The notes below the pieces were generated by a model. It saw only the letters and a program-made list of their open reading frames with translations, was not told where the DNA came from and did no database searches. Of a DNA stretch of 64,000 nt, positions 1 through 59,400 are shown one piece after another. A program made the position numbers and the translations under genes. Within the stretch, counting starts at the first letter, position 1. The number at the start of each line of letters is the position of its first letter. The DNA lies in NCBI GenBank assembly GCA_003344405.1, contig NOWV01000118.1:62001-126000 (forward strand). Direction: 5' to 3'. The stretch is from Trichoplax sp. H2 (taxonomy: Eukaryota).

Positions 1-2596
1 AAGAAAAGTGTTTTAGCATCCATTAGAATATTGACACACAAATGCGCAGATACTGATTCTATTATGTTATAAATTAATTTATAAACGTGGTTATCACATT
101 GCAAGTAAACTATTTCAACTGGAATTATTGTCGGATCTTTTAGACTTTTGATTTTTGCATGACACGGTAAAAATACTTTTTTTTTCAAGACTACATTCTC
201 CTATGATTTGTGTACCGTATGCAGTTACTACAGAATGGAACATCGATACGGTAATTTCTTATATTAGAGCAGTTGCTTACCAAGATCATCACCATCGCGT
301 CGAGCTATGGTCAAAAATAAAATATGTATTAGTATTTTCTTGTATGATGAGAATCATAGTATCTCATTCATGATGAATAGATATCGCTATTTCCTCTTCG
401 GCAATGCATTGACTCAACGTACTATAGTACAGTATTGGCAAAGGTCTTTTGTAAATTTGTTGACGGAATACTTTAACAATGTTTAGGATGAAAAGTAACG
501 GATAGCTTTTGTATCTACTGTACTGTACAGTACAGCTACAGTGAATAATATCATTACAGGAGCAAATATAGCTTCATCAGAAAGACACGCTAAATTACAG
601 TAATAGATGAATCATTAATTATTACAGCGATTAATATTCAATTAGAAACATATTATTGAATGCTGTACTTACAGCGAGGAAGAGCTTTATATTTGGCCAT
701 AGCACAAGGCAATAAGGAGGCAAGGCAAGCTGCGTATATTGATAAGAAGTAAGAATTATACATATTGCCTATGTCCATTTGATGCAAAGAAGCCTACAAA
801 GTGGCGGAATCCAAATGGAAACTACAACTCTACAATGTGCTCGATGACGTTGAATTATGAATGGATGATACTACCCAAGATTGATTCATGTCTGAAATTA
901 AATATACTTGTACTTGTACTCGTAGGCATGTTGTCTGCTAACGACTTGAGCTCTCCATTGATCATGATCATTTGAGCGAGCGTCAGCAATCGCTATTGGC
1001 TAGCTAGTGCAAGGATTGCTTTCAAGGAGAATACAGACAGTATGCACTATCTTGGCTGATGTTTTACCTTTCCATTGGAGATGGTTCATCTTAGGATAGA
1101 GTCGTAACAATATTTGCTAGTATTAAAAGGACAAACCCATCCGCTGCAAGATCGACTGTTGTTGAAGTGCTTTTCCCTTAATCGTTGGCAAAACCAACTC
1201 ATTCCCATCACTACTATACGGTGTCCAGAACAGTCCGACCTGGCACTATCCTGTACTGCGCTGCAAGTGGAGAGAGTGCGCAAAATCGGTACGACTTACC
1301 GACTGGTACCGGCGCTAGTCTACTGCGATACTGTTCATTGGTCAAGCGTCCCATTGACTCGTCCACTACCAATGTTAACCTACTGTATGATGCGCGATAG
1401 TAGCCGTTGATAGGCAATCTTGGCCGCTTTGTTTTCATGTCTAAATATTTTTTTTTTTTTTGCATGACAGGCTGATCACTGAAGATTTTCTATTTACTTA
1501 TCACAATATCTTCCGTTAGGAAGATGGCAAGCAAGTTCAATATGTACTCCATTGATATTTACAGGTAGGGTTGTGCTGTCGTTGGAGTAGGCCAAGTAGT
1601 GCGTGTCTCTTGTTTCTTTCTACAAGTGCTACAGTATCCATATCCATTCAAGGTTACAAGGATGGCCGAATAGGCGTTTTTCTTGTAAATTGATCAATTG
1701 TCTGCATACTTGATCAAATTGCCGTAAAAAAGAAATACCGTGTGCTGTTGTAACCATGATAATCATGTGCAATGCAGTCTGTATCATTACTGAATTGGCT
1801 TTTGCTACGTGATTCTTGTAACAATAGTTTAATCAAGGCGTAGACTGGATTATCATTCTCATTCTTCTTCTTTTTTCTATTTCTGTACTCGTACTGGATA
1901 TCGTTTCTGCCGTTCAATCAATGCAATCGGTTTAAATCATCGGTTTAATGATGTTATGATGATTGGATGAAAATCATTTAAACTGCTCCTCTTGTGCACT
2001 TTACTCACTACAGTATAGCAAAAGACATGGTGCATTCAAGTATTTGCTTCTATCTTGGTCACCATGTCATGAACAAGTGAATAAAGTTGGACATGTTGGT
2101 CGAAGAAGCGATGACGAAAAAGAATTTTTGATTTGCAGACAATACCCCGCAGTACTATGGATATTTGTTACTGTTTGCAACAAGAGATCGACAGCGCTAT
2201 GGCGATACTTGTTCCTTACGTCCGATGACTACGATAGACTGTACTATGGCGTTGTGTATGCAAATAGAGCGGCAAAGGACATGCTCTCCATAGATCGGGT
2301 TCATCTTACTGTCAAGTAGGTCACATTGCTACAATATGCAACACTTACCGTAAGCAAATAACATTAGCTGTGAGTATGCCATAATTGTGGAATGTTGGAG
2401 TCAATTTTGCCACTGGCTCTGGTTGGTGTTTTGGCGTCAATAGGACGAGCGATCTAGTTATCCAATGGAGACAAAAGTAGCATTGATATTGACACTAGCA
2501 TAATTGTCCATTCAAGTCAAAAAGATGACAAAATAGAGCAGTAGACACAATATACATGGATAGTGGTTGCTTACCAGTTGGCTACTAGCTTGTGTG

Positions 2597-4722
2597 AGAA
2601 AGTTGGTTTATTTTGGCAAGTTTTTCCAGGCCTACATGAATCCAGATGAGTCCAATAACAACTAGCTGCAAGCCAGCGGCGACTATTTCTCGATGTCGGG
2701 TATGGGTGGATGTGGTCACTGCGATCAGCGTACTGTACTCTACAGTATATCGATTGATACTGTCCGTGTTGTGAAAACTTGCTCCAGTACAGTCCATTGT
2801 ACTGTACAGCGGCGACTCCTTGGATGTTCACTGTAGCGTGTACACTGTAAACGTACAGTACAGTACAGTATACTGTACTGCAAACGTGAGATCAGTTCGG
2901 TTCAATCTCTTTATGATCTACTGTACACTGTACAGTACAGTACAGTACGACAGTACAGTACAGTACAGTACAGTACAGCACTGTACCGTACTGTACACTC
3001 AATGCACTGTACTCTACTGTACTGTACTTTGCACTGATCATGAGCGTGCGCACTGTACTGTAACGGACAGGACAGAGAAGTGGTGGGGGAAAAAAGGCTT
3101 TACAGTACAGTATTTCCTTCAATGGATTGGATTGATTGACTGGGCAGCAACCTACTTGTAACAGGATAGTGTATGATGCCTGCCAAAGTGTTGTAAAATG
3201 CAGTATGCTGAATGAAGAATGCTGCTGATGATTGTATTCAATATATTTGTAATAAACCAAGGCAAAAATAAGAATTCAATTCTACTGGATATGATGATCA
3301 ACAACTTGAAATCAACAATACAGTACAGTACAGTACACAAAGGCACAACACCACCATCTCTCTTGACATTGTATTGTAGATGCCAAGATAAACACTGTAC
3401 AGTACAGTACAGTACTGTACTGTACTGTACTGGTCTGAGAAAGGTTCGGTTGGGTTCAATACCTTGATGGTCTAGACTCTAGATGTACTGTACACTGTAG
3501 TCCCTGTCCACATCCATGTCAGCACTACAGTATACTGTACAGTACATACTACGATCGTACTCTGTACAGTTGTCCGTCTGTTCGCTACTAGGTCCCAATC
3601 GTCATTTTACCCCTGAGAGAAAGTAAAATGGCAGTCAAAATGAGTGATGCACGACACACATTGACTGCTTTCATCATTTTTATTGACAGAGGATTGAATG
3701 GTTGNNNNNNNNNNNNNNNNNNNNAGAAAGTTGGTTTATTTTGGCAAGTTTTTCCAGGTCTACATGAATCCAGATGAGTCCAATAACAACTCGCTGCAAG
3801 CCAGCGGCGACTATTTCTCGATGTCGGGTATGGGTGGATGTGGTCACTGCGATCAGCGTACTGTACTCTATATCGATTGATACTGTCCGTGTTGTGAAAA
3901 CTTGCTGCAGTACAGTCCATTGTACTGTACAGCGGCGACTCCTTGGATGTTCACTGTAGGGTGTACTGTACACTGTAAACGTACAGTACAGTACGTACTG
4001 TATACAGTACAGTACGACAGTACAGCACTGTACTGTACACTCAATGCATTGTACTCTACTTTGCACTGATCATGAGCGTGCGCACTGTACTGTAACGGAC
4101 AGGACAGAGAAGTGGTGGGGGGAAAAAAGGCTTTACAGTACAGTGTACTGTACTAGTACAGTATTTCCTTCAAAGGATTGGATTGATTGACTGGGCAGCA
4201 ACCTACAGTACTTGTAACAGGATAGTATATGATGCCTGTCAAAGTGTTGTAAAATGCAGTATGCTGAATGAAGAATGCTGCTGATGATTGTATTCAATAT
4301 ATTTGTAATAAACCAAGGCAAAAATAAGAATTCAATTCTACTGGATATGATGATCAACAACTTGATATCAACAATACTGTACACAAAGGCACAACACCAC
4401 CATCTCTCTTGACATTGTATTGTAGATGCCAAGATAAACACACTGTACTGTACTGGTCTGAGAAAGGTTCGGTTGGGTTCAATACCTTGATGGTCTAGAC
4501 TCTAGATGTACACTGTAGTCCCTGTCCACATCCATGTCAGCACTACAGTACAGTATACTGTACATACTACGATCGTACTCTGTACAGTTGTCCGTCTGTT
4601 CGCTACTAGGTCCCAATCGTCATTTTACCCTTGAGAGAAAGTAAAATGGCAGTCAAAATGAGTGATGCACGACACACATTGACTGCTGTCATCATTTTTA
4701 TTGACAGAGGATTGAATGGTTG
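2597..4722. repeat. Direct duplication of ~1.0-1.1 kb (2597-3704 and 3725-4722) either side of a 20-N gap; probable uncollapsed haplotypes or recent tandem duplicate
   Basis: Both copies begin agaaagttggtttattttggcaag and end ggattgaatggttg. They differ by a few substitutions, by 5-bp CAGTA/CTGTA indels and by one larger deletion in copy 2. Confidence 0.9.
3705..3724. other. Assembly gap (20 N)
   Basis: Run of n characters. Confidence 0.99.
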
Positions 4723-5399
4723 GTTTAAAAGGTTTCTTTCATCTCAACGTCCTCTCTTTGGATTCATTAAAAGGGTCTCTGCCCATCGTGGAACCCCTCC
4801 CTGCGCTGGTGAAGATTCGGCGTCCTTGTTTACTACTGTACTGTACTGTACAGTATGGACAGTCCAGTGCTGTCTGCGGTACAGTACAGTACAACCACAA
4901 CACCGTCCTGTACTGTAGTAGTAAAATCATCAACATGATCGATCATCGATGCCACCCAGAGCGATTTGCTCTTTCCTCGAGTGTTGACTGTAAGGGCAAG
5001 GAAAAGAAAATAGGAATAATATTTTTTCTAGCGCTTTCAATCATAGACTGCATCATGTGTAGTGTAGCGCCAACAGTGCTTAAACGGAGCAGTATCGGTC
5101 AGTATGGTGAAGAAGAAACGGTCAGAGCAGAACTGATGTCAGCGAACTCGAAGCCATTGCATGGCTTTACGGTAACTACATGACCGGTGTCCGCTGTATC
5201 ACTGTACTGTACAGTGTACAGTGTACAGTACGTAGCCTAGTCCACTCTGACTACCTATCGTATCATCATGCTACCGGACCGGACCGGAACGGCCAGTCTC
5301 GTCCGCAGTACGTTACGGTACCATTTGGCTCCGTTGATTGACTGTAGGAGTGTAGGCTGACCGTTACCGTTGGTCAACTCACCACGGCGTGGAGGACCG

Positions 5400-5860
5400 T
5401 TGACGCATTTGCAGTACTAGACGTTGGTATTGTACACTGTACTGTAGAGTCCACTGTCTTACAGTACTGTACTGTAACGCATTTGTACTAGACGTTGGTA
5501 TTGTACAGTATGTACTGTACAGTACTGTAGAGTCCACTGTCTTACAGTACAGTACTGTACTGTACTAGAGTCCCTGTCTTATAGTACTGTACTGTACTGT
5601 ACTGTAACGCATTTGAAGTACAGTACTGTACTGTACAGTACAGTACTAGACGTTGGTATTGTACAGTGTACTGTAGAGTCCACTGTCTTACAGTACTGTA
5701 CTACAGTCCCTGTCTTACAGTACAGTACAGTGTACTGTACTAGAGTCCCCTGTCGTGTCGTACTGTACTGTACTGTACAGTACGAGAGTCCCCCGACGTT
5801 GGTACTGTACAGTACTACAATCCCCTGTACTGTAGAGTCCCTGTCTTACAGTACTGTACT
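5400..5860. repeat. Minisatellite of two alternating units (tagagtcc(a/c)ctgtct and aacgcatttg..tagacgttggtattg) interleaved with TACAG/TACTG runs
   Basis: agagtcc units recur about 7 times (near 5446, 5529, 5567, 5675, 5742, 5785, 5834). gacgttggta recurs about 4 times (near 5420, 5491, 5649, 5795). Confidence 0.8.
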
Positions 5861-8071
5861 GTACAGTACTGTATTGTACTGTACCAGGGTCGACTGTCAT
5901 GCCCTACAGTACAGTACAGTACAGTCCCCCCCCCAAGTTGGTACTGTACTACAGTGCGATCGCCGCCTACAACCACTGGCTATCCAGGCACCAAAGCAAG
6001 CGCGTCAAGCGATACTGGTGGGTGAAGCGAGTGACGTTGAGTCTTCTTTCTTCCAAGCTCTTCAAGCTCTTAATTGATTTCCAATTCAATTCCGCCGTGG
6101 CAACCATCGCAAAAATCAATTCTTCCATCTTTCTTGGTGTCTATTTGCTGGGAAAAATTGCATCGATTTTATCGTTGATGATCCAGTGGTGAGTGATTGC
6201 ACTAATATAGTATCCATTGATTGGCCAGGCCAAGAGGAACTATCCTAAGCATCATAGCCATCATCCAATCTGCAGGCCTACGTCTTGGTCCTGCTTGTTT
6301 GTTTGCAAGAGGATCATTTTCAATCCAAAGTCAATCAAACACATTTGGATTAAGCGATCGAGGTATCCAATCGTTCAGCTTGACATCATCTTCATCTTTT
6401 TCAATTTCCACTTGGCTAAGGTAATACAGGAAGAAGAGAGACAGATAAAATTGACCAAAGTCTGCTTGGGAGAATCTTCCATTACCGTCGTTGGAGAAAC
6501 CATCGATCCAGTTCCATTTACAACGTTCTACTCCACTTGTAGGATACGGTAATCCATTGCAGAGTAGACTTCTTTTTTCTTTTTTTTTCTACTGTACTCG
6601 ATCCTTTTGCCAGGAGAATATATTATTCCCTCCCCATGCCTACTTCCAATTCATGTTGATACAAGACCATCATCAATTTTTTCTCCCCTTCTTGATGGTC
6701 ATTGCAACATCATTCAATTCACCAACATCCAATCATCATCAACTTCCTTTCGCTTTTTATGTCGCTACGCTAAAAGATCATCCTAACCAGTGGAATGGAA
6801 GAAAATCAACAACTGCCATCAGACTGGCGATGCTTTCACTCATCAAGTCATCACTGCAATCACTTTGTCTTGTCTTGATTTGATCATCAAGCATTGACTC
6901 AGTGCAACCACAAATCTTCCAATACTTGTTCAATTTAATAGCATCCAGCAAGAACGGATCGTTTCCCCTTCTCCAATTCTACCTTTTCAATATTCCAATC
7001 ATCCATGGAGAAGTTAGTCTAGGTGTAAAATACTCGTAGCATTGCAACAAATCATCCCATTTCTCATCACCACAGGCCACCAACTTGCCTTACCTGTAGA
7101 TCCATTTCCATACTTGCTTGATCATTGAATCAGCTTCGATCAGCCTTATTATACGCCACCAATGACAATGAGTCTAACCTAAGCTATAGTAAGTTTGGGG
7201 GAAAAGCCATTTTCTCATTTCTTGTATTTTAAGACACTTTTTGAATTCAACTGATCGATACAGTCGATCAATAAGTTCATGCCATTGAAGAACGGCTGTA
7301 CTTTATTTTTTCCTGTTCTTACCGCATTATTTTCACAAAAAGAATCGGAAGGAAAGTCGAGTAGACTACAGCTTTACCGGTAGGATGAGTAGTCAGTGAG
7401 TGGCTATCCTTTTCATTTTGTCAATCATTTTATCATATCGTTGAAGAATGAAAAATAGCCATGGCTATTTTCCATCACCCTACAAACGTCTTGTTAATCA
7501 TACCCAACCAACCAGTAGAGAGATGATCGCTTTGCAAATTGCAACAAACTAATTCAAGTTCTCATCGTGCCGACAGGATGATGTACAGTGTTAATCGCTA
7601 GAGTAATACTATGGCCAGTATTACTCTAGCGTTGTATAATGAACTTTCTAGCTTCATTAAAATATCCTAATCCGGTATTATGGCCTTTCGTAATGCGCCA
7701 TCGATGGACAGTCATTCAGCCATCGCATATGTTGCTATAGGCTTGCGATCAATACATTGGGGATAGTGTTTTCAACGTGGATCGTCTACAGCAAGAATCA
7801 AGCTAGAATGTAGACTATTCCAACATGCAAAAGTAATCTTGTCCACCTAGTAATCACCATGTTGCATACAGTTGAATAAACGGCTACATTGGTCAACATC
7901 TGTGCCTCCTAGTCGATGCTACTTAAATCCATTGAAAACTACCCTACATCATTCTAGACTTAATAATTTATTGATGCTTTCTATTCCGTTGTAAAGTCAA
8001 GAGGACAATGTAAACTGATGTTAATGCTATATCAATAATAATAATACTTTATATTATTACAGGCAGCCAAA

Positions 8072-15525
<7,454 letters not shown>

Positions 15526-36260: not shown

Positions 36261-37397
36261 TTATTCAGTTATGATTGAATGGGCTGAAGTAATTGATCTC
36301 TTATCTTTAGCACGTTTATTCTGAAACCAAACTTGGACGACCCTTAAATCTAAACCAACCTTGGTAGCAATCATTTCTCTGGTAATTCTACTTGGTCTCG
36401 GTTTAATTCGATAGACCGAATTAAGCATTTTTAACTGCTGTTGTGTTATAGATGTTCGAGGTCGTTTAAGATTGGGATGATGTAGCTGAAAATCTACAAA
36501 AAAAATTGTGATAAATTGGGTAATCCATATCTAATCAATATGTAGAAAATCTTTAGATCAGGCAATATTTTCAACATTTTAGCAGCTACTTAGCTTACCA
36601 TCGCTACACATTATGGCGACATCATAATCTTCTTTACAAATTGGTTTACCTTCATCCGAAATGTAATATTTATCGCCTACTTTAAATTGTCTACTACATA
36701 CTATACAAAGGAGGCAGTTAATATGATAGCAAGAGCCATGAAGTCGGTAAACCATCTCATCCGGTAAGATACCAAGATTGCAACCTTGACATTTACGTCC
36801 AAATCGTCTATTGCAATTTCGTGTACCAGTTGATACCAAGATAGTATGGGAGGGTTACGAATAGCATCATAGTTCCAATGGGAGTATTTAAAAAATTATT
36901 TAATATATTAAATTCTTCAAGAAATCTTCATATAATTACGTAAATATTTTTCTTGGAAATACAGCTAATCTTGCTTTGAGTGTTAAAAATAATCAACCAT
37001 CTAAAGTTGTATGAGTATAATCTAGCATGACATCATTATTGGGTACTAGGAATTTAAAATTCATGCTATACTAATCGACGCAGTATCAGGAAGAGGATGA
37101 TAGTTTACAGGTAAAAGTTGTAGTCTCTCATGAAATAAATTACTAAGTAGGGATATCATAGTATCAATTATTTCAAAATGAATCAATATCCCTCTATTTA
37201 TAGAGAATGACTGGTTAGTTTACGTTACCTGTAGTAATGCATGCTGCAATAGATTGACTCTTCCTTTACAAAACATTTTCCTTCGAGGTTTTTACCGCAA
37301 TCTATACATGAAATGCATTTGCCGTGCCATAATTGATTATCCATTTCGTAAATGTTCCTATCGCGAATTTCTTCTTGGCATTTAAAACACAGCAATT
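36261..37397 (-). CDS. Lhx3/4: LIM-homeobox transcription factor, Lhx3/4-like (core exons; 5' exons uncertain, possibly extending to ATG at 38639)
   Basis: Exons 37397-37229 (LIM1 CFKC...WHGKCISCIDC...CSMHY), 36807-36599 (LIM2 RFGRKCQGCNLGILP...YHINCLLCIVC...CKEDY) and 36493-36261 (homeodomain [57 protein letters not shown], stop TAA at 36261-36263). KRPRTxIT, [13 protein letters not shown] and the short LIM2-homeodomain linker favour Lhx3/4 over Lhx1/5. Confidence 0.88.
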
Positions 37398-51774: not shown

Positions 51775-52300
51775 AACGTAAATTAGAAATTTTACTGGTG
51801 CTAATTGATGTAGGGTACATGTCTTTAGTAGCTCTGGCATATTGCTCCTTTAGCCATAATGGGTGCTATTAGTGTTTTTGACATTTACCTACTTGATATA
51901 CGGTAAGGTATCTCTAGAGTAAATTAGAAATTATACTAGTGCTAACTGATATAGAGTACATGTCTTTACTAGCTCTAGCATATTGCTCTATTAGCCATGA
52001 TAGTGTTAATAGTATTAATAGTGTTTTAACATTTATATCTTTGATATAAAGGATCTCTAGTATAAATGAAGAATCATACCGGTGCTAACTGATATAGAGC
52101 ACATGTCTTCACTAGCTCTAGTATATTGTCTTGTTAGCCATGATGGATGTGAGGAGTGTTATTGACGTTTTATGACGTTTATCCATTAAATTAAAGATCT
52201 TTAGTGTAAATTAGAAACTGTACCGGCGCTCCCTCATGCCCAGCACATATCATCAGTAGCTCCAACAGATTGTATCATTACCATAGTGCTGTAAGCGTTA
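51775..52300. repeat. Tandem repeat, ~4 copies of ~143 bp
   Basis: taaattagaaat ... ggtgctaactgatatagagtacatgtcttt ... tagctct ... atattg ... tagccat recurs near 51779, 51920, 52063 and 52207. Confidence 0.85.
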
Positions 52301-53088
52301 ATAGTATAGTTAGAATTTAGATACCTGGATAAAAGTGATCTTTCGTCCTCTACATTAAATGTGTAGTTCGATATAGATTTCGATCACAGAAAACGCTAGG
52401 TAAACTCCTAAACACTTCAATAATAATTATTAGTATTCTACGATAAACAATTATTAAATTGAGTTTCATTGCCAGCGAATCGCCTCGTGTAAGATAATAA
52501 GAACAAAGTTGTACTGTGAATACCAACAACGGCGTTACTATATATTAAAGTANNNNNNNNNNNNNNNNNNNNAGGAGTGTTATTGACGTTTTATGACGTT
52601 TATCCAATAAATTAAAGATCTTTAGTGTAAATTAGGAACTGTACCGGCGCTCCCTCATGTCCTGCACATATCATCAGTAGCTCCAACAGATTGTATCATT
52701 ACCATAGTGCTGTAAGCGTTAATAGTATAGTTAAAATTTAGATACCTGGGTAAAAAGTGATCTTTCGTCCTCTACATTAAATGTGTAGTTCGATATAGAA
52801 CAGTTTAAGCATATGGGCTTGGATCAATAAATTCCCGAATTCTCTATACTAAATTTTTATAGACCTTAACCGGAAAAGCTCGCAGATCCTGTACTAAGTT
52901 CGTGGAGATATTTCAACAATCACAGAAAACGCTAGGTTAACTCCTAGACACTTCAATAATAATTATTAGTATTCTACGATAAACAATTATTAAATTGAGT
53001 TTCATTGCCAGCGAATCGCCTCGTGTAAGATAATAAGAACAAAGTTGTACTGTGAATACCAACAACGGCGTTACTATATATTAAAGTA
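52152..53088. repeat. Duplication across a 20-N gap (52152-52552 vs 52573-53088); probable uncollapsed haplotypes differing by a ~115 bp indel
   Basis: Both copies start aggagtgttattgacg and end atatattaaagta. About 52800-52915 is present only in the second copy. Confidence 0.88.
52553..52572. other. Assembly gap (20 N)
   Basis: Run of n characters. Confidence 0.99.
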
Positions 53089-55728: not shown

Positions 55729-56422
55729 CTAGTCTTGTTTATTTCCTGAATATTCTCCAGCGTCTGAGCTATCGGAATCTTTCATGTCACCTAGTAAATT
55801 GGTATTAGGAGAAATACAGCAATAGTATTACTACAACAACGATAAAAAATATCATACTGTATGCCTGCAATAGTTTACTAAGGGGCCTCAGATCCTTTAT
55901 GATACTCTAATTTAAGACACCTACTTTGACTGGAATTTTCATCACGATAAGAATATTTTCGATATCCTTTATGACTTCTAGTTCCTTTCGTTTCCTGATT
56001 TTCTTTTTTCAACTACAGGAATTGACAGGTAATGTTATAATAATACAGTCATGATAACTAAATTCTGAAATTGCAATACAGGCTATTTACTTTTGCTCGT
56101 TGATTTTGAAACCAGACTTGAACTACTCGAGCGCTTAGTCCTGTTTTACGTGATAATTCATCTCTAACCTATTGGAGCGAAGGTAAGAAGCATATCAAGC
56201 AAAATGGTCTGAACCTTGACTACTAAACTAGGCGGACCAATTATTAAGTTACTGTGCTTGTTTAATGTAAAGTAACCTCTTTGCCAGGTTTAGAACTTTT
56301 CTCAAAAGAATCATGAAATAATTTTCTCTGTTGAGGGTTTAATACAGTTCTTTGCCTTTTGGCATTATTGGATTGGTCTTCGTAACTATCTGTTTTCCTT
56401 TTATTATCCATTGATGGAGAAC

Positions 56423-56453
<31 letters not shown>

Positions 56454-59400
56454 TTCTAATATAGCCAGCGATAAATCAGCATTTACTAATATAAAAATAT
56501 TAATCAATGATGGCAACCCATTCTATAGACTTTCTATCGATGCTACGTTGACCATTCTTTAACATACCTATGTCTTCTTCATTCCATGCTACGTTAGCAA
56601 AGGAGGGATTGGTAATTTTGTCATAATCAGCTCTACAATACAACTTTGTATCTTTTAATATATATTCATCACCACGCTTAAGTTGTCGTTTACAAATTTG
56701 GCAGAAAAAACATGTAACATGATAAACTTTCTTGAGAGCTTTCATGACTAATTCTTGCTTCGAAGCAATAATGCGACCACAGCCATCGCATCGAGTACCA
56801 AACAGCCTACAGTGCAATATTCGATAATTTGAAACGTGTATTACAAGCAAGGAAAAAATAACCTTAAAATAGTAAATTAGAGTATTATTGCTCGCTCATT
56901 TTCAAGGAATAGCTTTTAGCTGATGTTAAAATTAACAAATTCAATTATATGGCATGAACGGTAATGCTTAAATGATTTACTTCTACAGTGAAATGGAAAC
57001 AATAATTTCAACCTAATATTTTAGACGTGAATAAGTTATTCTATAATCTTGTAACAACGTCCGTGAGCAATTTTGTAGTTTATGGCGTAAATTCAAAACG
57101 AATTTCATTGATAGAGAAACATATCAGGGGATACTGTGAGGACTAAGTGGGTAAATTACTAAAAAAGGTTTCCAGACTGAGTTGCTTATAGAATAAGGAA
57201 AATAGCAATAAGATTATACGTTAAGGATGGTCTCGAAAGTGGTTATATAAATAAATGATTAGAATTTTACTAACTTTCATCAATTACGGTTCGTTTCTAT
57301 CCACAAAATCTTTCATTATTACGTAATACTGTAGGAATATATGCAAATTCTTAGAATATGCTATCATTGTTCCATCATCCTATCCATTTTCAATATACAG
57401 AACAGGTATTGCAGGATGGAGAATGTTTATCGTTTCAATGAAGAAATAACTGTAGCTGTCTGAATACCGATAATAGACAGTATTAATTGAATTGCTTTAA
57501 GTCTTATTTCAATTTTCTGGTTGAATGTTTCTGAATCACTAATGATGGCTACGATATTGAATTTAAAAGATTGACAGATATTGTTAAATAGTCTACTTGA
57601 CAAGATGTTGCCAAATAGACCAGTAATCTGTCAAAGTAAATATATTTATGTAGATTATGAAATGGAAATGATAAAGAGAATGAATTGAAAGGCTAAATTT
57701 AAATATCACCTGGAGTAGACCATCGCCTCTCCAATTAATTGTGGTTTACAGTGAATGGGGTAGCTAGATGATTTATAATCGTTTCAGTAAACACTGACTG
57801 AATATTTCAATGTACACTAGCCACAGTATTTTTTTATACCCTACTAATTTGTCTGGTATTATTCTTCTCCAGTAGATCTAATAAATTATTACATTATATG
57901 TCCAATAATTATAATAAGTACATTATTATCCCAGACGACAAAAATTAAAATATTGGAGTCTTATTATGATCCGTTTGTTACGGCTAATTAGAATTATCGG
58001 TTATTAGTTTATATTAAAAAATAGATAGGAGACGCAAGTGATGATATGAAGATTCAGGCTTAAGCAGGGGTGTTAATTTCATCGCGTGACAAAATTTAAG
58101 CGATATCACTATTAGAATATTAGATAAACTAAAGCTAAGTTGGTTTTATATTTTTTTTAGCATATGCTATTTGAAATAGTCAATTTTATAGTTTGAAGGG
58201 ATCACTAATGGCTTACATGATTTCATATTGACGATGCTAATGATTCAGTTTCGAAACTTAAATAAATTTTAAGAGTTACCTTTATTTGTGAGCAAAAATA
58301 AATAAGCTGTAAATGATGATGACGATAACGAAGAAGGTAATTGCGATCAATATTGCAATTCCATACTAGCGAGTATTGTCACATATTGTAATGCCCGTAA
58401 AAGCAGCCAGTTTTAATATAACGATGAATATTGTAAGAACGATCTAGGAACCATAGTATTATGTTCTTAATGTTTTAAGTACACAATAAAAACTGATCGA
58501 TAGTTTTCTTTCAGTAGGTAGGCATAATTATCCTATTATCGATATCTACGTGTTTGATGAAATATAGATATTGTATGTTTTGATAATTTTAAAAGTATAA
58601 GTGATGCAGATGATCAAATTTGCACCTCCTTTCGAAAAGGTTGATCAATGTAGAATGTAGTGTAGTTGTCGTCAATGGCTTACCAGTAAATGGAACAATA
58701 AAAAGACAACCAATGAAACGGATAAAAGAAGTTATTTAAAAGAATTGTTAATAGCAAGCATACTGTACGTTGGTATAGTAATGTTCTATCTAACTAGAAT
58801 AGTGAAACTGTATTATCTTGCCAACAAGAGCAACCATGATCGATGATGGAAGTATATTGAAAAATGAATGAAAACGAATTGAAAGGAAGCAAAATGGACT
58901 AAAATAATTTAGGAAATATCAACCTCGTCATAAGAAGTCTATTCGATGTCTGTGTATGCATATCAACATCTAGAAGTGAGTTAGTTACCATGACATAGCC
59001 ATTATGTACCTAGTAAATAGTGAGTTATTCTTTATAATACTTAGATAATATATTATAGAATTGGACTTCCTAAAAATTACTACAGGACATCCACTTATTA
59101 GGAAACTATACATTACACCATTATTGATATGTAGTTGTTAGAGTAGTGATCATATGATTGAGTTAACCAAAATAAATAGTGAAAAATTGGCTTAGAAAAT
59201 ATGCTTTTATCGCCGGTTCAGTAATGCTAATTATCAAGATCTATATGAGAGACGTGGTATGATTGATGAGATTTTACCTTTCTCAATACTTTATAATCAT
59301 TACTGCAGTATTGATCACAAACAGAAAATATCTTATTGTTTAGGCAGCAGTATATATATATAAATTACATTATCATTGGACATAAAAATGCTCATGTAGA

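Follow-up and report, generated by a model that had tools for sequence, protein, structure and literature searches.

The pentanucleotide ACAGT is the dominant microsatellite motif described for Trichoplax, where it accounts for 78% of the pentanucleotide repeats; its loci, 5624 in total (additional file 4), are located within 1 kb upstream of genes in 54% of cases and within 5 kb upstream in 85%, and kinases are enriched among those genes (Wang, Zhang, Meyer, and Bao 2010, Biol Direct 5:18, PMC2871265). The main text of that report contains none of the terms polymorphi-, allel-, slippage, palindrom-, footprint, or excision, and it does not address the origin of the motif. A word with the same core is known from transposon research as the canonical Sleeping Beauty footprint, TACAGTA/TACTGTA, in which duplicated TA dinucleotides enclose the last 3 bp of the element and the fourth base is ambiguous because of mismatch repair (PMC6943129; preprint 10.1101/659086). 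We analyzed 64,000 nucleotides of Trichoplax sp. H2 (GenBank assembly GCA_003344405.1, contig NOWV01000118.1, positions 62,001 to 126,000 of the forward strand; this whole stretch is referred to as the window, and positions are counted from its first nucleotide), in which two adjacent stretches rich in the heptamer TACWGTA (W being A or T) sit at 2597-3704 and 3725-4722, 3.4-5.5 kb upstream of a PKN-type kinase gene. The two stretches are haplotypes of one single-copy locus, and their repeat is the published (ACAGT)n promoter microsatellite, which was already known. At present, the finding amounts to a known repeat viewed through an assembly artefact.

The first version of the locus, designated haplotype A (2597-3704, 1108 bp, with 34 TACWGTA heptamers), ends exactly at a scaffold gap of 20 N (3705-3724), and the second, haplotype B (3725-4722, 998 bp, with 19 heptamers), begins exactly after this gap and continues into the unique right flank. 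Contigs (Logan) of four independent public runs, X1, X3, X4, and X8, which derive from four studies and carry two organism labels (organism B for runs X4 and X8), were placed on positions 2000-5600. A 996-nt contig of run X3 (record 8) matched 2000-2664 and then 3793-3993, i.e., the left flank running into B-type sequence, whereas A-type sequence ran into the right flank in a 1158-nt contig of run X1 (record 3; 3040-3332 and then 4379-5228) and in a further contig of run X3 (record 10; 3172-3393 and then 4447-5229). The boundary at 2597 was crossed unbranched by contigs in all four runs and the boundary at 4722 in three of the four; because a 31-mer graph would show a real tandem repeat as branching, these crossings indicate that no such repeat is present. 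The contig depth in run X1 was 53.7 across the locus, the level of its flanks (62.5 and 53.8), and contigs that represented the separate forms were near half depth (39.1 for 2807-2916 and 29.5 for 3930-4086 in X1; 24.4 for 4092-4257 and 14.4 for 3060-3201 in X3). Most of these contigs had 0 other letters relative to the window. Stretches that the contigs left uncovered (e.g., 4178-4298 in X1; 2968-3209 in X4 and X8) were excluded as evidence of absence, and the many contig joints and loose ends that derive from other array loci of the genome were left out.

Exact matches to both allelic states were recovered from independent runs, with 0 other letters in records 2, 4, 11, 12, 15, and 24, so that the differences between the stretches are not sequencing errors, an outcome that the initial annotation had named as refuting its reading. 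That annotation had also read the stretches as paired copies that accumulated their differences after a duplication, by a process that was recent, and neither point held: the contig joins and the depth identify haplotypes of one single-copy locus, and the single nucleotide polymorphism (SNP) divergence between A and B is 10/963, or 1.04%. Trichoplax genomes carry 1% SNPs and 0.1% insertions or deletions (indels) genome-wide (PMC6057997). The divergence of about 1% between A and B is thus normal heterozygosity, and the pair does not imply recent change. A true tandem duplication, with paralogous copies diverging later, would agree with the side-by-side order of the stretches in the assembly, yet it is highly improbable in view of the direct joining of both flanks to one copy in contigs of four runs from four studies, the unbranched copy boundaries, and a depth equal to that of the flanks. 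It also leaves unexplained why both stretches abut the gap exactly and why the other gap of the window repeats the pattern. This second gap, likewise of 20 N (52553-52572), is bordered by allelic versions of 401 bp on the left and 516 bp on the right (together 52152-53088), a second haplotype-pair artefact with 8 SNPs, a 1-bp indel, and a 115-bp indel (52800-52918) but without CWGTA units. At the upstream locus, the assembler left the haplotypes unmerged because of their many indels and placed them in tandem across the gap; gaps in this assembly seem regularly to conceal unmerged haplotypes.

The identity of the repeat with the published microsatellite is established by motif, array length, and position. 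Tandem ACAGT/ACTGT arrays longer than 12 bp were detected by Tandem Repeats Finder with period 5 at 2853-2870, 2930-2997, 3315-3337, 3394-3432, and 5905-5925, among others. Such arrays lie no more than 5 kb upstream of the Trichoplax adhaerens gene TRIADDRAFT_20881, the full set (2850-5925) being located 2.2-5.4 kb upstream of its start codon. The same gene is catalogued in the published survey, with ACAGT loci 2871 and 2914.5 bp away (PMC2871265, additional file 5, rows 1133-1134).

Global alignment of 2597-3704 with 3725-4722 yielded 963 aligned columns, 10 SNPs, and 18 gap blocks, which we read as 14 indel loci. One of these is in a G-run and 13 are built of CAGTA/CTGTA units; ten of the unit-built loci are exact multiples of 5 bp, and the others measure 18 bp, 23 bp, and, in a complex block, 61 bp. 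The estimate in the initial annotation that unit-sized indels would be as numerous as point differences was confirmed (14 loci versus 10 SNPs), and every string that it quoted was found in place. The repeat-free pair at the second gap, used as a control, showed 8 SNPs and 2 indels; the region upstream of the kinase gene has an indel excess.

The individual differences, taken from left to right, are diverse in form. At 2741-2747, A has a single TACAGTA where B has a bare TA (3869-3870), a difference of 5 bp; the unit runs opposite to the units of the adjoining degenerate array TA-CTG-TA-CTC-TA and is no tandem duplicate of them. A TGTAC duplication is accompanied by an SNP at 2837. The complex block of 61 bp at 2867-2935 is present in A and missing from B; it comprises a 38-bp unique core with units on either side, the core being a weaker version of the module at 3433-3480, and it is present in an organism-B contig of run X8 (record 23). 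The module itself, about 40 bp of the form TGAGA..GTTCGGTT..TTCAAT..TGATCTA, was found twice (2885-2915 and 3433-3480), both times between TACTGTACTG and TACTGTACACTGTA and with a short inverted repeat, and its first copy occurs in haplotype A only. Differences of 20 bp, corresponding to (ACAGT)4, and of 5 bp follow at 2950 and 2983, respectively. At 3015-3024, A carries (TACTG)2, 10 bp, where B has only TACT at 4057, and the G-run changes by 1 bp at 3085. Opposite position 3104 of A, an 18-nt insert found only in B (4137-4154, with units of 7, 5, and 6 nt) turns TACAGTACAGTA into a hairpin-forming near-palindrome; judged from a gap total of 29 (records 16 and 25), this insert is not in the organism-B contigs.

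Further to the right, an isolated TACAGTA in B (4204-4210) corresponds to a bare TA in A (3153-3154), again a difference of 5 bp, and the nearest array is about 40 bp away. The organism-B contigs of X4 and X8 are without these 5 bases, and run X3 has both states on separate contigs. TA(CAGTA)3 at 3319-3335 in A is matched by TA(CTGTA)1 at 4375-4381 in B, which amounts to 10 bp plus a flip of the center base; organism-B contigs run through 4375-4381 gap-free and with no other letter. The palindrome TA(CAGTA)3(CTGTA)3 of A (3398-3429) is represented in B (4438-4459) by one unit and an extra AC, so that the indel at this locus (3396) measures 23 bp, five units (25 bp) less an AC slip of 2 bp. A third state at the array 3394-3432, reading ...GATAAAC|ACTGTACTGG..., from which exactly six units, a 30-bp palindrome, are gone, is implied by a run X3 contig that is otherwise like haplotype A. 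The last three differences are of 5 bp each, at 3484, 3526 (present in B), and 3537. We also considered the presence or absence of TGTAC at 4506 as a recurrent mutation and rejected this, the simpler view being that both organism labels carry both alleles, with one per contig.

We favor, with a probability of roughly 0.6, the view that the locus is an allelic repeat that varies mostly by slippage, hairpin events, microhomology loss, or templated copying. Replication slippage or unequal exchange would add and remove homogeneous blocks and would make the duplications of one unit into two. At 2837, 3484, 3526, and 3537, a 5-mer is duplicated exactly and in tandem, and because TGTACA is palindromic, a GTACA duplication beside a CTG unit even yields a CAG unit. 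Where several units differ, the blocks are either homogeneous (AAAA, TT, by center base) or a palindromic AAA+TT. Inverted repeats are unstable through fold-back synthesis and hairpin-mediated deletion, and events of this type may add or remove perfect palindromes such as (CAGTA)3(CTGTA)3. Folded as DNA, the A array (3398-3429) is predicted to yield a hairpin of 15 bp and -15.1 kcal/mol (z = -3.3), versus 0 in B, and the 18-nt insert of B is predicted to give a hairpin of -6.6 kcal/mol, versus -0.6 kcal/mol without it. The third state in run X3 points to recent gain or loss of a whole palindrome. It is also the one hint in these data that the process is fast, as the initial annotation had described it. 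The simplest reading of the absence of 2867-2935 from B is a deletion or an unequal exchange between the flanking arrays.

Interconversion of a single unit and a bare TA would involve deletion between microhomologies (TA, TAC, or TACT) or the copying of a short template from an array close by; taken in the direction of loss, the differences at 2741, 3015, and 4204 are deletions across such microhomologies. No transposase active at present would be required for any of these steps. Most of the 14 differences appear to fit slippage or palindrome gain and loss. The argument of the initial annotation that slippage cannot produce such changes therefore applies to two or three of the 14 loci, namely 2741, 4204, and, for gain only, 3015, where slippage across the 4-nt repeat TACT could account for a loss but duplication could not account for a gain; it does not apply to the changes from one unit to two, which are duplications, or to the multi-unit blocks, which are homogeneous.

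The contigs with the second organism label bear on the direction of the changes. Those of X4 and X8 are empty at 4204 and have linked A-type states at 4117, 4174, 4227, and 4239; on the A side, they have the filled state at 2741 as well as the block of 61 bp (X8, record 23). Overall, the organism-B contigs are A-like over 4117-4239 and B-like over 4375-4630, including 4375-4381 and the array at 4442. Because five of five linked differences go one way, the organism-B lineage is nested in the same polymorphism and supplies no root, and alleles are reported to be shared between the two Trichoplax lineages (PMC6057997). For the sites with a bare TA in one haplotype and a unit in the other, histories of two deletions, of two insertions, and of one of each are possible, the first of these being the pure-deletion outcome that the initial annotation had named as refuting its reading.

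The anatomy of the repeat unit was examined across the window. TAC[AT]GTA occurs 165 times, compared to 14.0 ± 3.7 times in Markov-1 simulations, and 107 of these occurrences are within 2000-6000, which gives the upstream region 27 per kb versus 1 per kb elsewhere. Outside 2000-6000, the 58 copies are scattered over introns and intergenic DNA and exceed comparable words about 4-fold (23 palindromic 7-mers matched in composition, each with 8-22 occurrences). The following counts were made with copy B masked, which avoids counting alleles twice. ACWGT cores have T...A flanks in 146 of 295 cases, where 34 are expected, and all other flank pairs are at or below expectation; the enriched word is thus the 7-mer TACWGTA, and the arrays read TA(CWGTA)n. 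This TA-bounded anatomy is accompanied by a nearly strict A/T center (A in 76 units, T in 70, G in 8, and C in 8). Singles predominate (n = 1, 75), and the 22 arrays of at least two units comprise 7 with n = 2, 7 with n = 3, 5 with n = 4, 2 with n = 5, and 1 with n = 6. Among 49 pairs of neighboring units, 33 share the same orientation and 16 differ (binomial p = 0.021), and G or C stands at the center in just one pair, so A/T flips outnumber such changes 16:1. Flips are therefore far commoner than ordinary substitution at this position would give, which supports the initial annotation, and orientation is still non-random.

Several observations weigh against the account favored above. Logan contigs, which may be mosaics of two haplotypes, come with a single mean depth apiece and leave phase and zygosity uncertain, although the single-copy structure is independent of both. 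The isolated unit at 4204 and the opposite-orientation unit at 2741 are beyond slippage, contraction over a homology of merely 2-3 nt should be rare, and yet 1 kb holds two or three switches of bare TA and unit, compared to no other microhomology deletion in approximately 700 non-repeat bases. Slippage combined with neutral substitution also leaves unexplained the A/T center (146 A/T versus 16 G/C), the 16:1 excess of flips between neighbors, the T..A flanks, and the scattered singles. The step from 75 singles to 7, 7, 5, 2, and 1 arrays of increasing size suggests a separate source of singles. The A/T-centered, TA-bounded anatomy excludes simple slippage plus neutral substitution as the whole account and points to a motif-specific mutation process or to selection on a palindromic site.

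A mutation process of this kind would be provided by stacked transposon scars, an explanation that we regard as unlikely. A Tc1/mariner element with CAG...CTG ends and a 3-nt stagger would have entered a TA and later been excised, leaving TA-CAG-TA or TA-CTG-TA; each scar would create two new TA targets, so that scars would pile up as TA(CWGTA)n and then be amplified by slippage, and an animal that propagates by fission would inherit somatic scars. The unit is letter-identical to the canonical Sleeping Beauty footprint, and the TA-bounded enrichment (146/295 cores), the near-equal use of A and T at the center with few G or C, the weak correlation of orientation between neighbors (33 same, 16 different), the window-wide scatter of singles at about four times the level of comparable words, and the exact 5-bp alternation of TAC(A/T)GTA with a bare TA at 2741/3869 and 4204/3153 all agree with an origin by excision, as does the existence of decayed Tc1-family fragments in the genome. 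Against this stands the lack of a source in the window: Pfam domains of transposases were absent from the 150 of 175 open reading frames (ORFs) of at least 55 amino acids that were scanned, and a scan of the window for inverted ends (TACAG...CTGTA pairs) gave nine matches, of which eight are array sequence and none is Tc1-like. The ninth match, TA-CAGGCTATTTACTTTTGCTC at 56077 and a near-complement (17/20) followed by TA at 58311, 2.2 kb apart, was rejected; it does not extend past 20 nt, spans a LIM exon, and is probably due to chance. In the available parts of the published censuses, transposable elements make up 0.13% of the genome, with none active and with 11 decayed mariner/Tc1 fragments, and a later census lists 25 TcMar-Tc1 fragments totaling 1672 bp (supplement of PMC6057997). 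Such relics are hard to reconcile with thousands of arrays and ongoing polymorphism. The structure of the arrays is also at odds with stacked scars, in that the multi-unit allelic blocks are homogeneous or perfectly palindromic, which should be rare under random scar orientation, and in the 15 arrays with at least three units, about 8 of 30 ends run into CWG and lack a closing TA. Tc1-type elements are not known to target promoters, and the 27-fold upstream concentration is unlike their targeting. Non-canonical scars are not enriched in the hot 4 kb, where TACATA, TATGTA, and TACGTA occur once each versus 88 occurrences of TACWGTA, and outside this region the words TACATA, TATGTA, TACGTA, TACTA, and TAGTA are about as frequent as comparison words; the test carries little weight, since some cell types give mostly canonical scars (PMC6943129; preprint 10.1101/659086). 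No footprint origin for this repeat, or for microsatellites generally, was found in a literature search that lay outside subscription journals and bioRxiv supplements.

Selection is the other possibility. TACWGTA may be a palindromic site for a dimeric DNA-binding protein, or an initiator-like CAGT element, that promoters require in multiple copies, with selection acting on the number of sites and not on their position; a putative protein-binding or initiator-like role seems a slightly less remote prospect than an origin from scars, while still doubtful. In form, the word is palindromic (3+1+3) and its center is strictly A/T, and it is concentrated upstream of genes, the published survey placing 54% of loci within 1 kb of them (PMC2871265). 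Machine-learning models trained on Hi-C data also recovered the "repeating motifs ACGG and ACAGT" for Trichoplax (preprint 10.1101/2024.11.14.623548). Selection, however, supplies no mutational route to exact 5-bp units, and the contrast of 34 versus 19 heptamers between the haplotypes shows that any single unit is weakly constrained. Turnover of binding sites is compatible with our favored account of an allelic repeat altered by slippage, hairpin events, and microhomology loss or copying, the arrays being kept while units come and go.

The surrounding window is AT-rich eukaryotic DNA with approximately 30% G+C overall, and positions 2000-6000 are richer (42-45% G+C). The Pfam scan of the ORFs revealed HR1 and kinase domain exons at 8-15 kb, of which the HR1 exon has 95% identity to TRIADDRAFT_20881, an "uncharacterized protein" of T. 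adhaerens. Alignment of this protein to the window placed the start codon, in the first coding exon, at 8087 on the + strand, and together with the domain scan it defines the PKN-type kinase gene at 8087-15522 (+). Between the paired stretches and this gene, the upstream region continues in the single-copy right flank (4834-5925) with more TA(CWGTA)n arrays and with higher-order modules. Higher-order repeats of approximately 110-230 bp, composed of arrays and the boxes GACGTTGGTATTGTACAG and TAGAGTCC(A)CTGTCTTACAG, occupy 5412-5900, and within them 5412-5473 and 5641-5702 are 98% alike. A G+C-rich segment at 5240-5420 contains (ACCGG)3-4 at 5273-5292 and inverted ACCGTT/AACGG repeats; it recalls the repeating ACGG motif, which a preprint ties to a Trichoplax transposon, and also the Mutator inverted-repeat motif published for placozoan promoter hubs. 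Farther downstream, LIM and homeodomain exons are spread over 27-57 kb of the window, with LIM-domain exons on both strands (27355, 29954, 36582, 37228, 47301, 49692, and 56503) and a homeodomain exon at 36264-36530 (-), and the exon cluster at 27355-57000 looks like several adjacent LIM-homeobox genes. No tRNA genes were found in the window by ARAGORN. An Rfam search of 1-9000 gave 28 matches, all to miRNA-hairpin models and far under the gathering scores (best 34.6 versus 110); these matches reflect the palindromic arrays and are not genes. Alternative genetic code 6 was considered and dismissed, given that it opens more frames merely as expected for an AT-rich genome and that exon matches under the standard code settle the question.

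The practical lesson is that "tandem copies" beside runs of N in this assembly should not be taken as paralogues; the same haplotype pairs give free, phased views of allelic variation. If the units did originate as scars, they would show in concrete terms how transposon activity can give rise to a lineage-specific microsatellite and to promoter sequence, and a nearly transposon-free genome would carry thousands of footprints, some of them since co-opted as promoter sequence. The broad form of this idea, in which the dominant placozoan microsatellite is a fossil or still-growing record of cut-and-paste transposition stacked at open promoters, strikes us as improbable.

Compared to known systems, the pair at 2597-4722 behaves like other haplotype duplications at assembly gaps, with versions about 99% alike at aligned sites and each continuous with one flank; we see no difference from this ordinary artefact, here triggered by indel-rich repeats. 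With Sleeping Beauty-type footprints, the locus shares an identical 7-bp word, an exact gain of 5 bp at TA, and an approximately equal use of both center bases, and it differs from them in the lack of a visible donor, the unenriched companion scars, the concentration at a promoter, and the long arrays with partial end units. The instability of palindromes and other hairpin-forming inverted repeats is paralleled by 30-bp perfect palindromes that individual haplotypes and runs either contain in full or lack entirely, and the shape of these differences suggests that the same mechanism may operate here. The closest likeness is to the (ACAGT)n microsatellite (PMC2871265), with which the locus shares the organism, the pentamer, and the placement upstream of a kinase gene, gene 20881 itself being listed. 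To the available part of that description, our analysis adds the TA-bounded unit, the A/T-only center, the mixed orientation, and the unit-wise gain and loss between alleles.

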